DNA of 53,040 nt from Candidatus Nanohaloarchaea archaeon (GCA_042217585.1 JBDGSJ010000013.1:1-53040); one strand, 5' to 3'; positions 10,090 through 23,357 are shown, counted from the stretch's first letter. Notes: generated from the letters alone by a model not told the origin. Translations and numbers: made by a program.

Positions 10090-10305
10090 GATTCCCTCAA
10101 CAATCAAACTGTATGTTCAGCGGCTCTGACCTCCGGAAGGGTGGACGTTTTGTACCGGTCGGAGCTGCATCGATGTAGAACTCTTTCTGCGAGGCTGAAC
10201 TTCATGAGACCCGAGACCAACAGAGACAGCTCTATCGCCCCTGAAAAACCTCAAAACGGATTTAATACTTCCTCTCGCAACCGGTTCACAGGAGGACTGT
10301 AAACT

Positions 10306-13656: not shown

Positions 13657-16389
13657 ATGAGCGACGGAAAACACTCGGAGATGTCCAAGTACCAGCTGAA
13701 GAAGCTTATCAACAGGCTTGAGGACATCCGCGGCCGCAACACGGAACTGGTCTCGCTGTACATACCCGCGGGGTACGACATGTCAAAGATCTCGGACTTT
13801 GTGACCTCGGAGCAGAGCGAGGCGGAGAACATCAAGTCGAAGCACACCCGGAACAACGTTCAGGATGCGCTGTCGAAGATCGGGCGGAAGGTGAAGGAGG
13901 AGCAGGAGACCCCGGAGAACGGTGTGGCGTTCTTCGCGGGAAATGTCAGCGATACAGAGGGCAGGCCGGACATCAAGATATGGGAGGTCGTGCCCCCGGA
14001 GCCGATCGAGTCCCGGCATTACAGGTGCGACAAGGAGTTCGTATTGGAGCCGCTGAAGGAGATGGTCGTGGACGACAGGGTCTACGGCCTGATAACTGCG
14101 GACAAGTCCGAGGCCGCCATCGGCTATCTCCAGGGGTCCAGCGTGAAGACCGTCTACACCATGAGCTCCAACGTCCCCGGGAAGACCAAGGCGGGAGGAC
14201 AGTGCCTGGACCCGGATTCAGTAGTCCAGATGTCTGACGGAGACCTGAAACGAATTGAAGAAGTTCAGGTTGGTGACAGCGTTAAGTCGGCAGATACTGA
14301 CTCCATGGAGCTGAGGGACTCTAAAGTCGTGGACAAATGGAGGGAAGAGAAGACAGTCTATAAGATAGAGACCAAGTTCCCGAGAAAGACCATAATGTGT
14401 TCTGGCGATCACGAAGTGTTCACTTCGACTCTGGAGAAGAAAGCTGCCGAAGACCTGGAGGAAGGGGAAAAACTTCTTTTCCCTGAGAAAATAGATACTG
14501 CCTCCAGAGAAAGAATACTGGATACAGAAAAATACTATAACTCTTTCAAGATATCGGAGAAAGGCAGAGAAAAGCTTAAAGAGGAGAGAAAAGAGCTAGA
14601 ATATTCTCAGAGCCGTCTAGGAGAAGAAGTAGGAGCAAGTCAGACAGCAGTATCTAAAATCGAGCTTGGGGAAAGAGATGTAGGAAGGGAACTTCTGCAG
14701 GATATCTGTGTGGAGCTAGGTATCGATTTCAGAGGTTTCGTACAGGACTACTGCAGAGGTAAGGAGTACAGTCTTCCAAACAATACAGGAAAGGATCTGG
14801 CTGAGATACTGGGATACTTCGCCGGGGACGGCAGCTTCGATTCGGAAAGGCTGAACTTCCATGAACAGGATAGAGAAGTAGCAGAATACTATCAGGAGAA
14901 ACTAGAGGATGTGTTCAAATGTGATACAAAGATCAGGTTCAGAGAGGATAAGAACTACTATCTGCTAAGAGCATTCGGTAAACCACTGGTCAAGTTCATA
15001 AAAGAGGAGTTCCCGGAGATCAAGAAATCAGGAGATACAAAAATACCTGAAAAAGTACTTGAAGCCGATGATGAGATACTTCACAGATTCATACAGGGAT
15101 TCTACGACGCAGAGGGACACTGCAGTGAAAACAGAGGCAGGATAGGACTATCAGCAAATAACAAAGTCCTGATACACCAACTGCAATCATCGCTACTCAG
15201 AGCTGAAGTGGTAGCATCTTTGACAACCTACGACAACAGAGAAAACCCGCATACCGACAACACAAGATACACTGTGAGCATCTCTGACCAGAAATCGATC
15301 CAAAACTTTGCCGAAAATATCGGATTCTGCAGTGAGAGGAAGACAAGAGAACTTGAAAAAATCTGCCAGCTAGATAAATCCAGGAATAACAACCGTCAGA
15401 TACTGAAAAACGGGGAAGAAGTCAGGGAAGTGCTCCAAAACAACGGTAGGAAATTTAATGACTTCAAAAAATCGAACATGTACTTACAGGGAAAAAGAGA
15501 GATAAGCAAGAAGAAATTCGATGAAAACATAAAGAAAGACACGGAGGGCACTCTAGAGAAAAAACTGGGAGAAATCCACAGCTCCGAGATACTTCCTGCA
15601 AAAATAAAGTCGATCGAAGAAAAGGAAGAACAGGAGGTAATAGATATAAGCGTAGAGGCAGGCAATTTCATAGCGAACAACCTGGTAGTTCACAACTCGG
15701 CCCAGAGGTTCGCACGCCTCAGGAAACAGATGCTGAAGTCCTTCCTGCAGGAGATAGCGGAGAAGGCGAAGAACGCGTTCCTCGACAAGGCCCGGGACGG
15801 GGACCTCCTCGGTATAGTAATCGGTGGACCGGGCTTCGTGAAGGACAAGCTTATCGACGACGACTACCTCCACCAGGAGCTGCAGGACAAGGTCATCACG
15901 TCCAAGTCAATCAGCCAGTCAGGGGAGGCCGGTCTCAGCGAACTGGTCCAGAAAGCGGAGGACGAACTCGAGGACTCACAGGCCGTGATGGAGAAACGGA
16001 TGGTCAACAGGTTCCTGGAGAACCTTAAAGAGGAGAACGGGAAGTCGGAGTACGGACTGGAACCGGTGATGAAGGCGATGAAGATGGGAGCGGTCGACAC
16101 TGTCCTGATATCCGAATCACTGGACATGTTCCAGGCAGAGTACGAATGCCCGAACGGCCACGAGGACGACGTTATCGAGGAGGAGCCCGAGATAGAGGAC
16201 TCGAAGGAATGCCCCGAGTGCAGCGAGGAGATGGACCTGGAAGAGATGAGCGACATAGTCGACGTCCTCGGGGAGAAAGCGGAGGAGATGAGTTCCGACC
16301 TCGAGATAATCTCCACGGACCACGAGGAAGGCCAGAGACTGGAGAACATGGGCGGTATAGCCGCCATACTCCGGTACAGGATACGCTGA
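13657..16389 (+). CDS. prf1: Peptide chain release factor aRF1, intein-containing precursor (910 aa; 412 aa after splicing)
   Basis: TELVSLYIP, NIKS, YRCDKEF, VPGKTKAGGQ|...|SAQRFARLR, GGPGFVK, C-terminal Zn-ribbon and GGIAAILRY. Confidence 0.96.
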   Translation: MSDGKHSEMSKYQLKKLINRLEDIRGRNTELVSLYIPAGYDMSKISDFVTSEQSEAENIKSKHTRNNVQDALSKIGRKVKEEQETPENGVAFFAGNVSDTEGRPDIKIWEVVPPEPIESRHYRCDKEFVLEPLKEMVVDDRVYGLITADKSEAAIGYLQGSSVKTVYTMSSNVPGKTKAGGQCLDPDSVVQMSDGDLKRIEEVQVGDSVKSADTDSMELRDSKVVDKWREEKTVYKIETKFPRKTIMCSGDHEVFTSTLEKKAAEDLEEGEKLLFPEKIDTASRERILDTEKYYNSFKISEKGREKLKEERKELEYSQSRLGEEVGASQTAVSKIELGERDVGRELLQDICVELGIDFRGFVQDYCRGKEYSLPNNTGKDLAEILGYFAGDGSFDSERLNFHEQDREVAEYYQEKLEDVFKCDTKIRFREDKNYYLLRAFGKPLVKFIKEEFPEIKKSGDTKIPEKVLEADDEILHRFIQGFYDAEGHCSENRGRIGLSANNKVLIHQLQSSLLRAEVVASLTTYDNRENPHTDNTRYTVSISDQKSIQNFAENIGFCSERKTRELEKICQLDKSRNNNRQILKNGEEVREVLQNNGRKFNDFKKSNMYLQGKREISKKKFDENIKKDTEGTLEKKLGEIHSSEILPAKIKSIEEKEEQEVIDISVEAGNFIANNLVVHNSAQRFARLRKQMLKSFLQEIAEKAKNAFLDKARDGDLLGIVIGGPGFVKDKLIDDDYLHQELQDKVITSKSISQSGEAGLSELVQKAEDELEDSQAVMEKRMVNRFLENLKEENGKSEYGLEPVMKAMKMGAVDTVLISESLDMFQAEYECPNGHEDDVIEEEPEIEDSKECPECSEEMDLEEMSDIVDVLGEKAEEMSSDLEIISTDHEEGQRLENMGGIAAILRYRIR
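14203..15696 (+). mobile_element. Intein (498 aa) with XRE-type HTH and LAGLIDADG homing endonuclease in aRF1
   Basis: Starts CLDPDS (block A), CSGDHEVFT (block B), LAEILGYFAGDGS and FIQGFYDAEGH (LAGLIDADG), VIDISV...NFIANNLVVHN|S (blocks F/G). DNA is visibly AT-richer than the flanks. Confidence 0.96.
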
Positions 16390-16431
16390 ACCGGGAAAGC
16401 TTTAACAGATTTCCACCCTCAATCTTCCTCT

Positions 16432-17013
16432 ATGGCGGATGAGGAGAAAGACGTGGTCCACAACGTGGACCTGACGAACGACACCTATACTGTCAAGCAG
16501 AGCCTTGTAAGGAACAAGTACAGCGTATACGGACCTGGCGGTGAACTGGTTCTGAAAGGCAAACAGAAGCTTTTCAAGATGAAGGAGGACTTCTCCCTCT
16601 ACAACTCGGAGGGAGACCCTGTTTTCCGGGTAAAGGCGGATTCGATAATGGACATAGCCGGCGACTACACCCTGACCGATGAGGCGACGGGGGAGCCGAT
16701 AGCGGTCCTGGAGAAGAACTTCACGGTATTCAAGCACAGCTGGAGGATTAAGGACCCTGACTCCCGCGACATGGTGGCGCGGATAGAGAGCAGAAGCACG
16801 ATAATCGACGCTTTGAGGGTTTTCTCCGACCTTGTATCCCTTCTGCCTCACAAGTACAGCATCGAAACTCCGGAGGGAGAGAAGATCGGAGACATCAAGG
16901 GAAGCTTCTCCCTGAGAGACCGGTACGAGGTCCACATAGAGGATTCCCGCGGGATACCGAAGGAGGCGCTGGTGGCTGCGACCCTGACCGTCGATGCGCT
17001 GGAGGGCAACTAA
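16432..17013 (+). CDS. LURP-one-related / scramblase-like (Tubby C-like) protein
   Basis: YTVKQSL.RNKY, KQKLFKMKEDF, FSLRDRYEVHI, LVAA.LTVDALE. Confidence 0.85.
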   Translation: MADEEKDVVHNVDLTNDTYTVKQSLVRNKYSVYGPGGELVLKGKQKLFKMKEDFSLYNSEGDPVFRVKADSIMDIAGDYTLTDEATGEPIAVLEKNFTVFKHSWRIKDPDSRDMVARIESRSTIIDALRVFSDLVSLLPHKYSIETPEGEKIGDIKGSFSLRDRYEVHIEDSRGIPKEALVAATLTVDALEGN

Positions 17014-17044
17014 CCTGATAAAGGACCGGTTCACAGATGGAAGT

Positions 17045-18049
17045 ATGAGGAGAGAGTTACGTGCGCTGGGACTTCTGACCTCAGTCATTCTGCTGTCTGT
17101 CACGGCATCAGGATACACTGTCCAGGAAACCGGAAACGGCTTCCAGGTGACGGGACTTTCGCTGGATGCTGACACAGGAGTATCGATAGATCTGGAGGAG
17201 ATAGATTCACCGGTCAGGAAACTCGTCATAAACTCGACGCAGGCCATATTCGACGAGAACCTGACCGTTAAGACAAGCGAAGACATTACGGAGAGCGATT
17301 TCCCGGACCTCCCCGCCAGACGCAAGCCCCTCCGGTCTATAAACGTCACCGGCTTTTACGCACAGGTCCAGATCCGGGTCGAGAAGAAGAACTCCAGCTC
17401 CGGCGTGTACGTGAAAAGGTTCTACTGGAGGGAGAAGAACTTTACAGGGAAAAAATACACGGTGAGAAGCTCCACGCCGTTCATACTCGTAGAGACCCGT
17501 CAGAAGTCCTGTAAATCTCCAGCTTACGCACTGACGCCGGATGGACAGACATGCGTGAGGTACCGGAACACCTGCCAGATACCGGAGGGCCATATAGAGT
17601 TGAGAAGCTGTTCCGTACAGGACGAGTGGAACCGGGCGAGCAAGTTCCTCGGGAACTTCTCGAAGAAGATGACCCCGAGGAGGGCAGAGCTTCTGGACCG
17701 GGCCAGGGATGCGTTCAGATCCGGGAACTACACGAAGACGATAGACCTCGTGATGAAGGCCAGGAGAGCCCCACCGTTCTCCATCACCTCTATTTTCGCC
17801 GTCCTGGCCGGTGTTCTCGTACTGGTGCTCGGGACGGGGACCATCTACCTGTGGATGACGAGAGACACCGAACCTGCGACCGGAGAAGCCGCAGAAATCA
17901 CGGAAGAACTGAGGTCCCTCCTGGAGGAGGCCAGCCAGGAAAAAAGGGAGGAGGTAGGCGACGAAGTGAGGGACCTGCGGTCAGCGCTGGAAGAAGGAGA
18001 GATCGAGGAAGCCGAAGAGCTTCTTCAGGAAATAAGAGAGAAACTCTGA
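17045..18049 (+). CDS. Surface protein with signal peptide, 4-Cys module, TM helix and acidic cytoplasmic tail
   Basis: MRRELRALGLLTSVILL signal; C-terminal half resembles that of the downstream protease. Confidence 0.8.
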   Translation: MRRELRALGLLTSVILLSVTASGYTVQETGNGFQVTGLSLDADTGVSIDLEEIDSPVRKLVINSTQAIFDENLTVKTSEDITESDFPDLPARRKPLRSINVTGFYAQVQIRVEKKNSSSGVYVKRFYWREKNFTGKKYTVRSSTPFILVETRQKSCKSPAYALTPDGQTCVRYRNTCQIPEGHIELRSCSVQDEWNRASKFLGNFSKKMTPRRAELLDRARDAFRSGNYTKTIDLVMKARRAPPFSITSIFAVLAGVLVLVLGTGTIYLWMTRDTEPATGEAAEITEELRSLLEEASQEKREEVGDEVRDLRSALEEGEIEEAEELLQEIREKL

Positions 18050-18065: not shown

Positions 18066-21000
18066 ATGAAAAAGACCACGTTTCTGGTCCTGGCCTTCAT
18101 AGCACTGAACGCAGCAGCGGTTTCAGAACCTATAGAGCTAAAGGGAGGTGATATCAGACCTGGAAAGCAGCTTTCCACGTATTTCCTGCCAGATTTCCAG
18201 GGCGAAAGACACGTCATAATACAGCTGGACTACATACCCAACAGCACCCAGAAACAGATGCTGGAAGCGAGAGGTATCGAACTGCTCAGCTACATACCGG
18301 AGAACGCCTGGTACGCAACTGTCGAAAGCCGCGGCCTGAAAACAGCCTCCTCGATAACCTACGTCTCTGCTATCGATCCATCCCGGAAGATAACATCCCG
18401 GCTGAGAAGAGAGATGGATGGGAAAGGATACGTGAGGACCCGGGTGCAGTTCTTCGAGGACCTGAGTCATCCGGTGTCCAGGGAGATAGCTCAAAAATAC
18501 GGGGAGATTCTCAGGGAACCGGAAAAGAGAAACACCTGGCTTGTCAACGTCCCCGAACCGTTTATACGAAATCTATCCCGGCTGGACGACGTAAAACGGC
18601 TAAAAGCGCCTTTACCAGAGAAGAAAACCCTTAACGCAGATTCTAGGGCGCTGATGGATATAAACTACGTCCAGAACAGCCTCGGGCTCAAGGGAGATGG
18701 TACGGCGGTCGCCCTCTGGGACAAGGGCTGGGCAGGCCTTCACCCTGATATCAACTTCAGCTCCGACTACCATATCGGCGACAGGAACGGATGCGGTAGT
18801 TACTGCGAGGTGAAATACCATGCAACACATGTCGCAGGGACTATGGCAGGCAACGGCAACGTCACCTACAGTCTGAGAGGTATAGCTCCCAACGCGACCA
18901 TAGTAACTTATGAATGGCCTGATACAGTGAGCGAAATCTATGGGGAGATAAACGAATCCATCAATGACTACGGAGCGACCCTTTCACAGAACTCCTGGGG
19001 CTACGGTAATTCAAAAGCCTATGGGACGTACGACTCTGTTTCTCAGGTATACGATGATATGGTGCATGACGAGAAGTCACTGAAACGGAGCATACCGATA
19101 ATCTTCTCGGCAGGGAACTCTGGACCTGGATACAATACGACCACAGGACCAGGTGGGACTGCGAAGAACACGATAACGGTAGGTGCGGTGTACGCCAGCA
19201 ACAAGTCAGTTGTGAAGTTCTCATCCCGCGGCCCTGTTAACGGCGGAAGGATCAAGCCTGACGTGATGGCCCATGGTTACAGGGTGAAGTCCACTATGCC
19301 GGATGGCTCGGGATTCTATCCCTACGCAAGTATCAGCGGGACCTCGATGGCGGCGCCCGCGGTTTCCGGGGTCGTGGCGCTGATGAACCAGAAGTTCATG
19401 CAGCAGACTGGCGACTATCCACAGCCGGAGACCGTGAAGGCCATCCTTATCCACACTGCGAACGATATCAACCAGACCGGTCCGGATTACGTGACAGGCT
19501 GGGGTATCGTGAACGGGTCAAAGGCGATCAGCCTTATAGACGACAACGCCACCGGCTACCTGATAAAGAGAGGGAGACTGGCGGACGGGGAGCGGAAGAA
19601 CTATACTTTCTATCTGAAACCTTCGGAAGACGCCAGGCTCACCCTGGTGTGGAGCGATCATCCGGCCGATACGACAGCTTCAGACAAGCTTGTCAACGAC
19701 CTGGACCTCGTGGTCAGGAACGGGTCCGGCCACAGGTTTTTCCCGTGGACCCTGGACCCGGACAACCCTTCAGATCCGGCGGTGAGGACCTCCGAGGACC
19801 ACCGCAACAACCTGGAACAGGTCTATATACCCTCAGGAGCCTCCGGAGAGATAACTGTCTCGGTGCAGGGACATCAGATACCTCAGCCCGAACAGGATTT
19901 CACCCTCATCAAGTCCCGGACCCTCAGGAACGACCTGGAGGTGGAAATCAAGTCCCCCGATAACAGGACATACACCACCAGAGAGGTCAATTTCACTGTA
20001 TCGGCCAACAAGAAGCTTGATACCGGGAAATTCTGGCTGGACTACGGTTCGAACAGTTCCATGCAGAGGAGCGGGGACTACAGGCTCTACAACAGTTCCT
20101 ATCCTCCTATCGGCCAGGGAACCCACAACGTGACTTTCTGGGTGAGGGACAATGAAGGCGTCAAGGAGATGAAGACGAGGTACTTCTCGATCGATACTCT
20201 GGCACCCAACCTGACCGTCTACGAGCCACTGAACACCACTTATTCGACCAGAACCGTGAACCTGAGCCTCACGAACTCCAGCGACGTGGTCAACCTGACC
20301 GCGCAGTTGAATGATGGACCGCGGAAAGTTATCACAGGCAACACTACAAGGTCTCTGTCCTCTGACGGTTTCTACAGGCTTGAGATCCGGGCATGGGACA
20401 GTCATGGCAACGTAAATCTTTCCACGGTCCACTTCACCGTTGACACAGAGGAACCGGACCTGCAGATCCATAGCCCCTCAAGCAAGAATTACAGCACCTC
20501 TGATATCCTGATGAACGTCAGTTCTTCTGACAACAGCTCCATAACCCGTGCAGTTGCCCAGGTGAACTCCAGTAAGAACGTCACTCTGGTGAAGCAGAAA
20601 GGTTCCTGGGTAAACGATTCTCACAGCTTCCAGGAGGGTGACGGAGAAGTCACTTTCTACCTGAAGGATTCTGGAGGAAACGTGGGCTCGAGGTCGGTGA
20701 GGTTCCACGTGGACACACTGAGACCGGATCTGGAGCTTTACAGCCCGCGGAACAGGACCTATGCCAGAGAGACCGTCTGGCTGAACTACACCACCTCCGA
20801 TGACGTGGTCAACGTGACCTACAGGGCCGGGACAGGGCCTTCCAGGACCGCTGACGGCAACTTATCCCAGGACCTCAGCGATGGGTTCTACAACCTGTCG
20901 GTCACCGCCACGGATTCAGCCGGGAACCAGAACAGTTCAGAGGTCTCCTTCACCGTAGATACATCTCCCCCGTCCCTGACGATCGAGAACCCGGACAACA

Positions 21001-23357
21001 GGACCTATACCTTCAGCGATCCGGTGCTGAACGCCTCCGCCTCGGACTTCAGTGGACTGGAATCCGTCATTGCAGAAGTGAACGGGAGCCGGAACGTGAC
21101 CCTGGTCCTGAACAGCTCCTTTTATGTGAACGATACCTACAGCTTCCCAGAGGGCAGTCACAGGCTGTTCTTCTATGCCGGCGATACGGCCGGGAACACT
21201 GCGCGAGAGAACGTGAGTCTCGAGATTGACACTGTCGCCCCGGACCTGACAGTCATCTCTCCTGACCGGCTGGAGGATTCAAGGGATGTATGGTTCAACC
21301 TCTCGACGGATGAGAAGGCAGGAGATGCCTATGTGAATATCGATTCAGGCGGCAATCTCTCCCTGACCGCTAACTCCTCCGGAACAGGTTTCAGCCTGGA
21401 GAGGACAGTCTTCGAGGGGGAACATAACACGACTTTCTGGGTGAAAGACACCGCCGGGAACCTGAACTACAGTTCGCAGAACTTCTCAGTCATGATAGAA
21501 CCAGAGCTTGAAAGGTTCGGCTCAAGGACCTCCAACGGACTTGTGAATAAGACATTTAACATCACACTGAACGTGACTGAGCCGAACCTTGACGCGGTAG
21601 TCCTGAACGTAACTCACCCGAACGGGACCCGGTTCAGTCTCGGTATGGAGAACATCTCCTCACTGGACAGGAACTTCACCCTCTGGTACAGGGATTTCAA
21701 CCTCACCACCTCAGAGGGAAGTTACAGCCTGGAAGTCTTCGTAAACGACACGTTCGGCAATAACGCCACCGGCACGGACACCTTCAACGTCTCCCGTCCC
21801 GTCCGGTTCGATTCAGATGCGCGAGGGACAAGAGCTGTCAACCTTAGCTGGAGTATCTACTATCCCGGCACGAGCGACCTGAGGTACAGCGTAACAACAA
21901 ACTCCACGAATTTTACCCTTCCGGCCGGATACTGGGACCTTGAGCTGGGGTCCAGGGACGGCGAGATGAACGTCTCGGTGAGAGGACTTAACCTCTCCAG
22001 GGAGTTCAACGGAACCGTCAGATGGATGGAAAACGCCTCCACTTCGGGTTTCAGCCAGAGCGGTCTACGTCCCTGGAAGATCTCAGTTATCCGGCTGGAC
22101 CGGGGTTTCAGGTCCGCGACTCTGAACACCAGCTTCGACAGATCTGAACCCGAGAACGGTTTAAGCCTTTTCAGGTGCCGGAGCTGGAACTTTAGCTCCG
22201 GAAACTGCGACTCCACCTGGAGAAACTTCACGGAGAACACGACGTTCCACGCCGGGAAGGCAAGGATAAGTACGGCGGGTTTCTCGGCCTTCCTTATCGC
22301 CGAATCAAGGGATACCTCGGGAGGGGATGATGGCGGAGGTGGCGGTGGAGGAGGCTCGACCGGGTTCTTCGGAGGAGGCACATCGGTCCAGGAACCTGTC
22401 TATCCAGGACCGAGAGTCAGGGGTAATGCCACCTTCCTCAACATCTCCAGGATAAACATCTCAGGAGGAGAGGAAATCGATGTGGAACTTGCGAACGCCT
22501 CGGAGTTCCCCGTCGCCGAGCTGAACCTGACCTCGGAGACGAACGTTACAGGCGGATCTTTCCGAGCGGAGATATTTCAGGAACCTTCAAACGGTACTCC
22601 GCCGGAGTTCCGGGCCCTGAGATACGTGGAGATATCGGGCGACGTCGGGGCGGAGATCCTGGTCCGGAGCTCGAACGCTTCGGACCTTACGCTAATGCGG
22701 CTGAACGGTTCGTGGGAACTTATGAACAGGTCCGTGGGGGATAGTTACTGGCTGAACGTTTCAACGCCCCTGGTCTATGCGGAGGTCGTAAGGAAGGACT
22801 GCTCGCCGGCTCCATTCCCCGCCGTATCGAAGGGGAGCTGTACCGTTTACAGGAACAGCTGTAGAGCTCCAGAAGATGTGGAAAAGGTCCGGAGCTGCGA
22901 GGTCTGGAACGACAGGATGGAAGTCAGAGAGCTGATAGAAAACGCATCGGACCTCACTGAGACCGGGGAACAGAGGAAGATGTTACAGAAAGCCAGGGAA
23001 GAGCTCGAACAGGGCAACCTTTCTGGAGCCGAAGAACTGGCGAGGAAGGTGATGAGGAGGGAGCCGGAGATCAGGAAGAAAGGATTCAGGCCGCCACTTG
23101 GAATCGTGGGAACTATCCTTGCCGTACTGGCGGTATCAGGCGCCGTCTTACTCCACTGGAAGAGACGTAGAAGAAAGAGGAGGATGGTAGAGTTATCCGA
23201 AAGGCTGAAGGGATTAATCCGGAGCATGGACCAGGATAAACTGGACAGGTTTGAGGAAGATCTTAGGGAGGCGCATTCAGCTCTTGAAGAAGGCGATTAC
23301 CGGAAGGCTGATGAGGCGCTGGAGGGACTGCGAAAGGATCTGGATCAGGCCGAGTAA
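18066..23357 (+). CDS. Large membrane-anchored S8 (subtilisin-like) serine protease with Ig-like repeats
   Basis: Signal peptide, prodomain, catalytic WD / HATHVAGT / GTSMAAP, oxyanion SAGNSG, repeated DT.(A/E)P.L...SP.N.TY units, poly-Gly linker near 22320-22380, C-terminal TM. Confidence 0.93.
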   Translation: MKKTTFLVLAFIALNAAAVSEPIELKGGDIRPGKQLSTYFLPDFQGERHVIIQLDYIPNSTQKQMLEARGIELLSYIPENAWYATVESRGLKTASSITYVSAIDPSRKITSRLRREMDGKGYVRTRVQFFEDLSHPVSREIAQKYGEILREPEKRNTWLVNVPEPFIRNLSRLDDVKRLKAPLPEKKTLNADSRALMDINYVQNSLGLKGDGTAVALWDKGWAGLHPDINFSSDYHIGDRNGCGSYCEVKYHATHVAGTMAGNGNVTYSLRGIAPNATIVTYEWPDTVSEIYGEINESINDYGATLSQNSWGYGNSKAYGTYDSVSQVYDDMVHDEKSLKRSIPIIFSAGNSGPGYNTTTGPGGTAKNTITVGAVYASNKSVVKFSSRGPVNGGRIKPDVMAHGYRVKSTMPDGSGFYPYASISGTSMAAPAVSGVVALMNQKFMQQTGDYPQPETVKAILIHTANDINQTGPDYVTGWGIVNGSKAISLIDDNATGYLIKRGRLADGERKNYTFYLKPSEDARLTLVWSDHPADTTASDKLVNDLDLVVRNGSGHRFFPWTLDPDNPSDPAVRTSEDHRNNLEQVYIPSGASGEITVSVQGHQIPQPEQDFTLIKSRTLRNDLEVEIKSPDNRTYTTREVNFTVSANKKLDTGKFWLDYGSNSSMQRSGDYRLYNSSYPPIGQGTHNVTFWVRDNEGVKEMKTRYFSIDTLAPNLTVYEPLNTTYSTRTVNLSLTNSSDVVNLTAQLNDGPRKVITGNTTRSLSSDGFYRLEIRAWDSHGNVNLSTVHFTVDTEEPDLQIHSPSSKNYSTSDILMNVSSSDNSSITRAVAQVNSSKNVTLVKQKGSWVNDSHSFQEGDGEVTFYLKDSGGNVGSRSVRFHVDTLRPDLELYSPRNRTYARETVWLNYTTSDDVVNVTYRAGTGPSRTADGNLSQDLSDGFYNLSVTATDSAGNQNSSEVSFTVDTSPPSLTIENPDNRTYTFSDPVLNASASDFSGLESVIAEVNGSRNVTLVLNSSFYVNDTYSFPEGSHRLFFYAGDTAGNTARENVSLEIDTVAPDLTVISPDRLEDSRDVWFNLSTDEKAGDAYVNIDSGGNLSLTANSSGTGFSLERTVFEGEHNTTFWVKDTAGNLNYSSQNFSVMIEPELERFGSRTSNGLVNKTFNITLNVTEPNLDAVVLNVTHPNGTRFSLGMENISSLDRNFTLWYRDFNLTTSEGSYSLEVFVNDTFGNNATGTDTFNVSRPVRFDSDARGTRAVNLSWSIYYPGTSDLRYSVTTNSTNFTLPAGYWDLELGSRDGEMNVSVRGLNLSREFNGTVRWMENASTSGFSQSGLRPWKISVIRLDRGFRSATLNTSFDRSEPENGLSLFRCRSWNFSSGNCDSTWRNFTENTTFHAGKARISTAGFSAFLIAESRDTSGGDDGGGGGGGGSTGFFGGGTSVQEPVYPGPRVRGNATFLNISRINISGGEEIDVELANASEFPVAELNLTSETNVTGGSFRAEIFQEPSNGTPPEFRALRYVEISGDVGAEILVRSSNASDLTLMRLNGSWELMNRSVGDSYWLNVSTPLVYAEVVRKDCSPAPFPAVSKGSCTVYRNSCRAPEDVEKVRSCEVWNDRMEVRELIENASDLTETGEQRKMLQKAREELEQGNLSGAEELARKVMRREPEIRKKGFRPPLGIVGTILAVLAVSGAVLLHWKRRRRKRRMVELSERLKGLIRSMDQDKLDRFEEDLREAHSALEEGDYRKADEALEGLRKDLDQAE

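Follow-up and report, generated by a model that had tools for sequence, protein, structure and literature searches.

The gene for the archaeal release factor aRF1 of a Candidatus Nanohaloarchaea archaeon is interrupted, directly behind its catalytic GGQ motif, by a 498-aa class 1 intein that carries a helix-turn-helix (HTH) and a LAGLIDADG homing endonuclease. We analysed a stretch of 53,040 nucleotides (GCA_042217585.1, JBDGSJ010000013.1:1-53040), hereafter the window, and judge from sequence comparisons that the insert is a selfish homing intein, with a probability of about 0.8.

Anatomy of the interrupted aRF1 gene

The aRF1 precursor ORF (13657-16389, 910 aa) lies on the plus strand, as do all the features of the gene given below. 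Its N-extein (13657..14202, 182 aa) comprises eRF1 domain 1 and the start of domain 2 (PF03463, TIGR03676) and ends in KTKAGGQ, and the C-extein (15697..16389, 230 aa) starts with the +1 serine (SAQRF) and comprises domains 2 and 3. The stop-codon recognition motif NIKS, the role of which is discussed in PMC3467058, is found at 13828..13839 (N58-S61; N58 and I59 are invariant in the alignment). The decoding motif YxCxxxF reads YRCDKEF (14020..14040) and is without an intein in this gene, and the catalytic GGQ occupies residues 180-182 (14194..14202), its glutamine occupying position -1 at the splice junction. With all three motifs present, the precursor scores 428 bits against the aRF1 equivalog TIGR03676 (cut-off 234.7). 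Among the matches listed, its closest named relatives are from Nanohaloarchaea.

The insert (14203..15696) runs from CLDPDS to NNLVVHN and matches the Pfam profiles Intein_splicing (PF14890; 71.3 bits, cut-off 35.8), LAGLIDADG_3 (75.2, cut-off 22.5) and HTH_3 (37.4, cut-off 23). The initial annotation had looked to a Hint-domain profile for confirmation, and the answer is split: Intein_splicing is well over its cut-off, but the Hint model itself gives 25.4 bits, below its cut-off of 29.7. For the residues we used the class 1 definition of PMC4031507 and 89 parsed proteins out of the 93 aRF1-intein matches listed, four being omitted as partial or GGW. Cys1, the first nucleophile (14203..14205), the block-B histidine H70, the block-F Asp481 and the terminal His497-Asn498 of block G (F and G, 15643..15696) are each invariant in 89/89, the +1 residue is serine, and the Hint fold is split by an insert. 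Block B has the form SxxH (14401..14412), in which position B:7 (S67 here) holds Ser in 85 of the 89 homologues and Thr in the other four; the less conserved block-F histidine (F:13) is missing from the insert.

The endonuclease has the expected two LAGLIDADG helices, each with a terminal acidic residue. Motif 1 (LAEILGYFAGDG; GYFAGDG) lies at 14797..14832 with D209, which is Asp in 80/80 endonuclease-bearing homologues, and motif 2 (FIQGFYDAEG) at 15088..15117 with E304, which is Glu in 79 and Asp in one. Both acidic residues are thus kept in every copy retaining the domain, at 30-80% identity. An XRE-type HTH (14575..14733; PF01381, 37.4 bits) precedes the endonuclease and is missing from relatives of 420-436 aa. 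Between the endonuclease and the C-terminal Hint part, the secondary structure of the model predicts a helical region with approximate boundaries 15358..15567, which seems to sit where solved archaeal inteins, as described in PMC8966425, have an accessory domain.

Excision of the intein in silico gives a 412-aa aRF1 with GGQS at 180-183, and the relatives hold 49 empty orthologues, most of them of 403-418 aa, as expected of an in-frame insertion. The profile matches, the residues and this restored product bear out the initial annotation, which had placed an intein at the GGQ motif and taken the conserved serine as the +1 nucleophile; the junction in the window indeed reads HN followed by S. 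That first reading overlooked the endonuclease and HTH anatomy, the size of the family, a second insertion site and an aVLRF1-like paralogue. The composition of the insert (GC 43%, GC3 49%) is foreign to the exteins (GC 58-59%, GC3 81-87%). An AlphaFold model of the precursor has a pLDDT of 87.8 and a pTM of 0.61, with pLDDT below 50 at residues 178-180, and Foldseek matches it both to aRF1/eRF1 structures (best 4af1) and to the inteins TliVMA (7qss), PI-TkoII (2cw7) and PI-PfuI (1dq3).

A family of inteins at the GGQ site

Protein searches retrieved at least 388 distinct proteins; as the searches were aimed at carriers, the counts are not frequencies. An intein starts directly after GGQ, GGW, GGM or GGF in at least 211 of these proteins, both junctions were parsed in at least 201, and a GGQ-type site is empty in at least 148. 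HN followed by S is found in 201/201 fully parsed proteins, N-S having been required by the parser. At least 117 of these inteins exceed 460 aa, at least 38 have 251-460 aa, and at least 46 are mini-inteins of 250 aa or less. The only invariant cysteine of the GGQ-site inteins is Cys1. The names available for a minority of carriers include Nanohaloarchaea, Aenigmarchaeota, Woesearchaeota, Nanoarchaeota, archaeon GW2011_AR20 and Nitrososphaerales/Thaumarchaeota, and the inteins of DPANN and Nitrososphaerales hosts are homologous (26% identity, E 7e-37). Some automatic JGI names read "eRF1/intein/homing endonuclease", and automatic annotation often hides aRF1 inteins as "LAGLIDADG endonuclease" or "helix-turn-helix protein".

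GGW, GGM or GGF takes the place of GGQ in at least 21 of the at least 201 carriers, and all 21 continue with SQ. The glutamine at -1 is therefore dispensable, and the intein follows the site rather than the glutamine. These aRF1-like proteins have the full architecture (P0085, P0090, P0103, P0110, P0116, P0169, P0192, P0205 and others), and at least seven further proteins of the same kind are free of an intein. Their motif suggests that the catalytic glutamine may be displaced by two positions, as in aVLRF1.

An acidic, unnamed aRF1 clade (P0208, P0226, P0331-P0363) holds mini-inteins of 135-186 aa alongside empty alleles, and P0208 has no viral or phage match. Among 34 IMG/VR loci considered as possible viral carriers, 18 have an uninterrupted GGQS, GGQC, GGWC or GGMC occurs in none, and nine were not readable in the frame tried; seven of the 34 contain inteins in proteins other than aRF1. 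One further protein, P0201, joins an aRF1 N-terminal part to the C-terminal part of a class I tRNA synthetase and is probably a misassembly.

A second insertion site at the YxCxxxF motif

A second family of inteins is inserted just before the cysteine of YxCxxxF, which becomes the +1 residue, in at least 70 proteins; the GGQ-site family counts at least about 200 clustered proteins. The YxC site alone is filled in at least 55, and both sites are filled in at least 15, which reach up to 1463 aa. Named members are Nitrososphaerales (for example P0131, P0134, P0219 and P0225). YxCxxxF is implicated in stop-codon recognition according to PMC3467058. Inteins of the two sites share 19-21% identity (E about 3e-4), and since this kinship is remote, aRF1 was the target of two invasions, one for each of its functional ends. 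Relatives of the YxC-site inteins (P0327, P0325, P0328, P0329) are found in ribosomal protein uS12, an RNA polymerase subunit, RtcB and a clamp-loader ATPase, the intein in uS12 adding one more core-translation host.

Proposed mechanism

For a selfish homing intein we propose that the 910-aa precursor is translated as a whole and that the Hint domain would then excise itself by the class 1 route set out in PMC4031507, through a thioester at Cys1, transfer to Ser+1, cyclization of the terminal Asn and an ester-to-amide shift. Gln182 would be joined to Ser+1 to yield an ordinary 412-aa aRF1, whose GGQ would be methylated and active in the ribosome. The glutamine of GGQ is reported to be methylated by Mtq2 in Haloferax (PMC6144793); in our organism, methylation would presumably be possible only after ligation. 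With a domain of 498 aa attached, the GGQ loop should be kept out of the peptidyl-transferase centre, and because GGQ has to enter this centre, splicing would have to precede aRF1 activity and the precursor would be inactive. Splicing itself would be constitutive.

The freed intein, with its endonuclease and HTH, could cut an intein-less aRF1 at the GGQ-S codons during DNA exchange between related cells, and repair of the break would copy the intein into the empty allele. For TliVMA, PMC8966425 describes a modulation of cleavage by HTH-like accessory domains. The GGQ-S site might be favoured because a near-invariant motif is hard to escape and requires exact loss, and because it offers a serine nucleophile. 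Inteins generally favour conserved sites (PMC2814812), so a parasite would be expected to settle in a catalytic motif, and the location alone does not point to regulation. Lineages would cycle through full, HTH-less, mini and empty states. The persistence of mini-inteins without an endonuclease, at least 46 of at least 201, counts against homing.

Occupancy and evolution in the phylum

From a phylum sample of 70 genomes the aRF1 locus was obtained for 59 and for the host genome (G000), 60 in all; the remaining ten yielded no aRF1 match for examination. The GGQ site is occupied in 11 of the 60, one copy being cut by a contig end, and empty in 49. The comparison of occupied and empty alleles proposed in the initial annotation has thus been carried out in the phylum, besides the at least 201 GGQ-site carriers retrieved. 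Four genera (g3, g15, g17 and g21) contain both states. All eight single-contig genomes are empty, which may explain why the intein has been overlooked. Mapped onto the extein tree, the 11 carriers imply 10 changes, of which strong branches make at least six unavoidable; with shuffled labels the mean is 10.4, and 223 of 500 shuffles need no more than 10. As occupancy is scattered like shuffled labels and genera are mixed, the pattern fits homing and loss and not a conserved checkpoint.

The endonuclease is under purifying selection: between G000 and a second carrier, G048, the LAGLIDADG region has 81% identity, with pN 0.10 and pS 0.75 (saturated), and is as conserved as the splicing domain. 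A dN/dS ratio is not given because dS is saturated in most pairs. Intein identity is 78% for G000 and G048 and 62% for G048 and G067, although the extein of G067 is closer (81% versus 79%). The intein data from 21 full-size nanohaloarchaeal-type proteins reject the host grouping of G048 with G067 in an AU test (p-AU 2e-5). For the reverse test p-AU was 0.10, and for two other AU tests 0.04 and 0.14; the groups tested were picked with the trees already in view. The conflict between host and intein trees is partial and modest.

At the family level the two trees agree, so much of the inheritance would be vertical, and the patchiness could reflect repeated loss. Taken to its end, this would mean an ancient vertical insertion that is now mostly being lost, with an endonuclease that no longer homes and patchiness from loss alone. 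Intein clades that track host clades at the family level and above speak for it, as do three of four AU tests that are weak or not significant and synonymous sites saturated in all pairs, so that no very recent jump of the intein was caught. We nevertheless consider such a history unlikely, since an idle endonuclease should decay but both catalytic motifs persist in 80/80 full-size copies, the intein data reject one host grouping, and the family spans both DPANN and Nitrososphaerales. The sequences indicate that the GGQ-site intein has resided in the phylum for a long time, with homing and loss on a local scale.

Flank identity among carriers was not clearly above background, and showed no clear tract of co-conversion. 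Directly after the site (15697-15711), Ser TCA/TCG together with a purine-ending Arg codon is present in 7/7 carriers and 12/38 empties (p 0.001; the pattern was picked after inspection, the best of 504 single-base tests has p 0.009, and related genomes do not count as independent). This bias might possibly reflect a target preference of the endonuclease and serves as a lead only.

Proposed dependence of termination on splicing

The host genome assembly consists of 38 contigs, 979,871 bases in total, with a completeness of 89.7%. The initial annotation had made the dependence on splicing hang on the lack of an intein-free aRF1 elsewhere in the genome; in this 89.7% complete assembly, neither tblastn nor profiles found a second canonical aRF1, and no other intein was detected. 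Two other matches, pelota (contig C4) and an aVLRF1-like protein (contig C33), are not canonical aRF1. A HemK-related methyltransferase with a score over cut-off is also encoded. The aVLRF1-like protein (G000:C33:25179-26063, L099:1680-2564) has 295 aa, no intein, the sequence GGFSQ, an acVLRF1 Pfam match over cut-off and a charged, coiled-coil-like stretch at its N-terminus, and it shares the GGxSQ motif with the aVLRF-1 family as described in PMC6514570. Conservation extends across nearly the whole family, to intein carriers and non-carriers alike, and the protein is probably a rescue factor. Given this intein-free paralogue, aRF1 may not be the sole peptidyl-tRNA hydrolase of that fold. The claim that aRF1 function needs splicing would thus stand for aRF1 itself, as it follows from the entry of GGQ into the peptidyl-transferase centre, while the paralogue may soften the dependence of termination.

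Is the intein a domesticated switch, in which salt, temperature, redox or host contact would gate splicing and so tune active release factor and translation? Before splicing, the precursor might even sit on stop codons and leave the chain unreleased. The single canonical aRF1 and the lack of a further intein in the host genome are compatible with this, both functional motifs of aRF1 are targeted and filled together in at least 15 proteins, and several clades retain mini-inteins. Engineered reduction of RadA splicing alters physiology in Thermococcus, as reported in PMC11409957. In the aRF1-aEF1alpha complex described in PMC3467058 the GGQ loop is exposed, mobile and outside the aEF1alpha pocket, which might leave the precursor able to bind aEF1alpha. 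However, 49 of the 60 relatives are intein-free, including congeners of four carriers, and occupancy is unclustered on the host tree. Cys1 being the only invariant cysteine, there is no conserved redox partner for a switch. Endonuclease activity is apparently maintained although a fixed switch could do without it, and the genome encodes pelota as well as the aVLRF1-like protein that lacks an intein. We therefore regard a switch as quite improbable, and the conditional checkpoint on translation suggested in the initial annotation finds no support in view of the scattered occupancy, the intact endonuclease with its purifying selection and the lack of a conserved second cysteine.

A stronger version, which we hold to be very improbable, has splicing gate termination in some small archaea upon a salt, temperature or host-attachment cue, both aRF1 motifs having been hit repeatedly and independently for that reason. 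The precursor would bind aEF1alpha and the stop codon, could not reach the peptidyl-transferase centre and would hold ribosomes, which the aVLRF1-like paralogue would rescue; the mini-intein lineages would then be the domesticated cases.

Assembly of the junctions

Contigs, not raw reads, were compared from two salt-lake metagenome runs of the same study, of which X1 may be the source sample. A single contig of X1 spans 13824-17100 across both junctions with one difference, and in X2 each junction is bridged by one contig with no difference, which settles the concern about a chimeric assembly raised at first. Independent orthologues with 55-78% intein identity have identical junctions. No joint skipping exactly the intein, as an empty allele in the same population would give, was found in three runs; a joint of 14060-15757 in X2 (short side 35 letters) was rejected as such an allele and is probably from another organism. 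Among the runs listed as containing the gene, none is of RNA. An assembly chimera is already refuted and a fusion that does not splice is most improbable: although the host assembly is in 38 contigs and the comparison was by contigs only, the junctions are bridged in two runs, at least 201 proteins share them, and the splicing residues are all conserved.

Comparison with known inteins and release factors

The insert resembles TliVMA (7qss, 7qsu), PhoVMA (7qst), PI-PfuI (1dq3) and PI-TkoII (2cw7) in combining Hint, a two-motif LAGLIDADG endonuclease and an accessory region, and its best sequence matches to solved structures are 7qss (E 2e-11) and 1dq3 (E 2.5e-7). According to PMC8966425, TliVMA and PI-TkoII have HTH-like accessory domains. 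The insert differs from these inteins in its 13-19% structural identity, in its host, which is a release factor and not an ATPase, polymerase or reductase, and in the place of its XRE-type HTH, which precedes the endonuclease whereas the accessory domain of TliVMA follows it. The host protein is like the class I release factors aRF1/eRF1 (4af1, 3agk, 3vmf) in NIKS, YxCxxxF, GGQ and three domains, but its gene, unlike theirs, is interrupted between GGQ and S. As described for the inteins of Pho/Tko RadA and of mycobacterial DnaB and SufB, an essential host awaits splicing; unlike in those conditional inteins, no sensing feature is evident here.

Essential hosts in translation or RNA handling are also listed by Novikova 2016 (PMC4760082; aIF2-gamma/IF2, aEF2, RtcB) and Green 2018 (PMC5784728; eIF5B, ThrRS), but those factors are GTPases or ligases. 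A release factor is listed as an intein host neither in PMC4760082 (main text and two of three supplementary files) nor in the main text of PMC5784728 nor in PMC10710043 (main text and two supplements), and the word intein has zero occurrences in the main text of the release-factor survey PMC6514570. In agreement with the initial annotation, which knew of no characterised example, we found no release-factor intein in the literature searched, a prior listing in a table or subscription paper being conceivable. The splicing mechanism is textbook, and what is new is the host protein and the two insertion sites, which apparently have not been described before. A core translation factor joins the intein hosts, against the view expressed in PMC4760082 that core translation components hold few inteins.

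The aRF1 inteins provide a full decay series (HTH and endonuclease, endonuclease only, mini), new natural mini-inteins, some of them salt-adapted, a marker of gene flow for DPANN symbionts and a case in which parasite and switch can be tested directly against each other in an essential gene outside replication. When aRF1 from these genomes is used as a marker gene, the insert must be removed.

Other features of the window

A sigma-70 scan is uninformative for archaea. A gap of 216 bases (10090-10305) precedes valS. Downstream of aRF1, a 1763-aa ORF (18066-23357) resembles, on visual inspection, a secreted protease of the subtilisin type that has repeated Ig-like domains and is anchored in the membrane at its C-terminus, and the C-terminal portion of what 16994-18049 encodes is similar to that of this large ORF.
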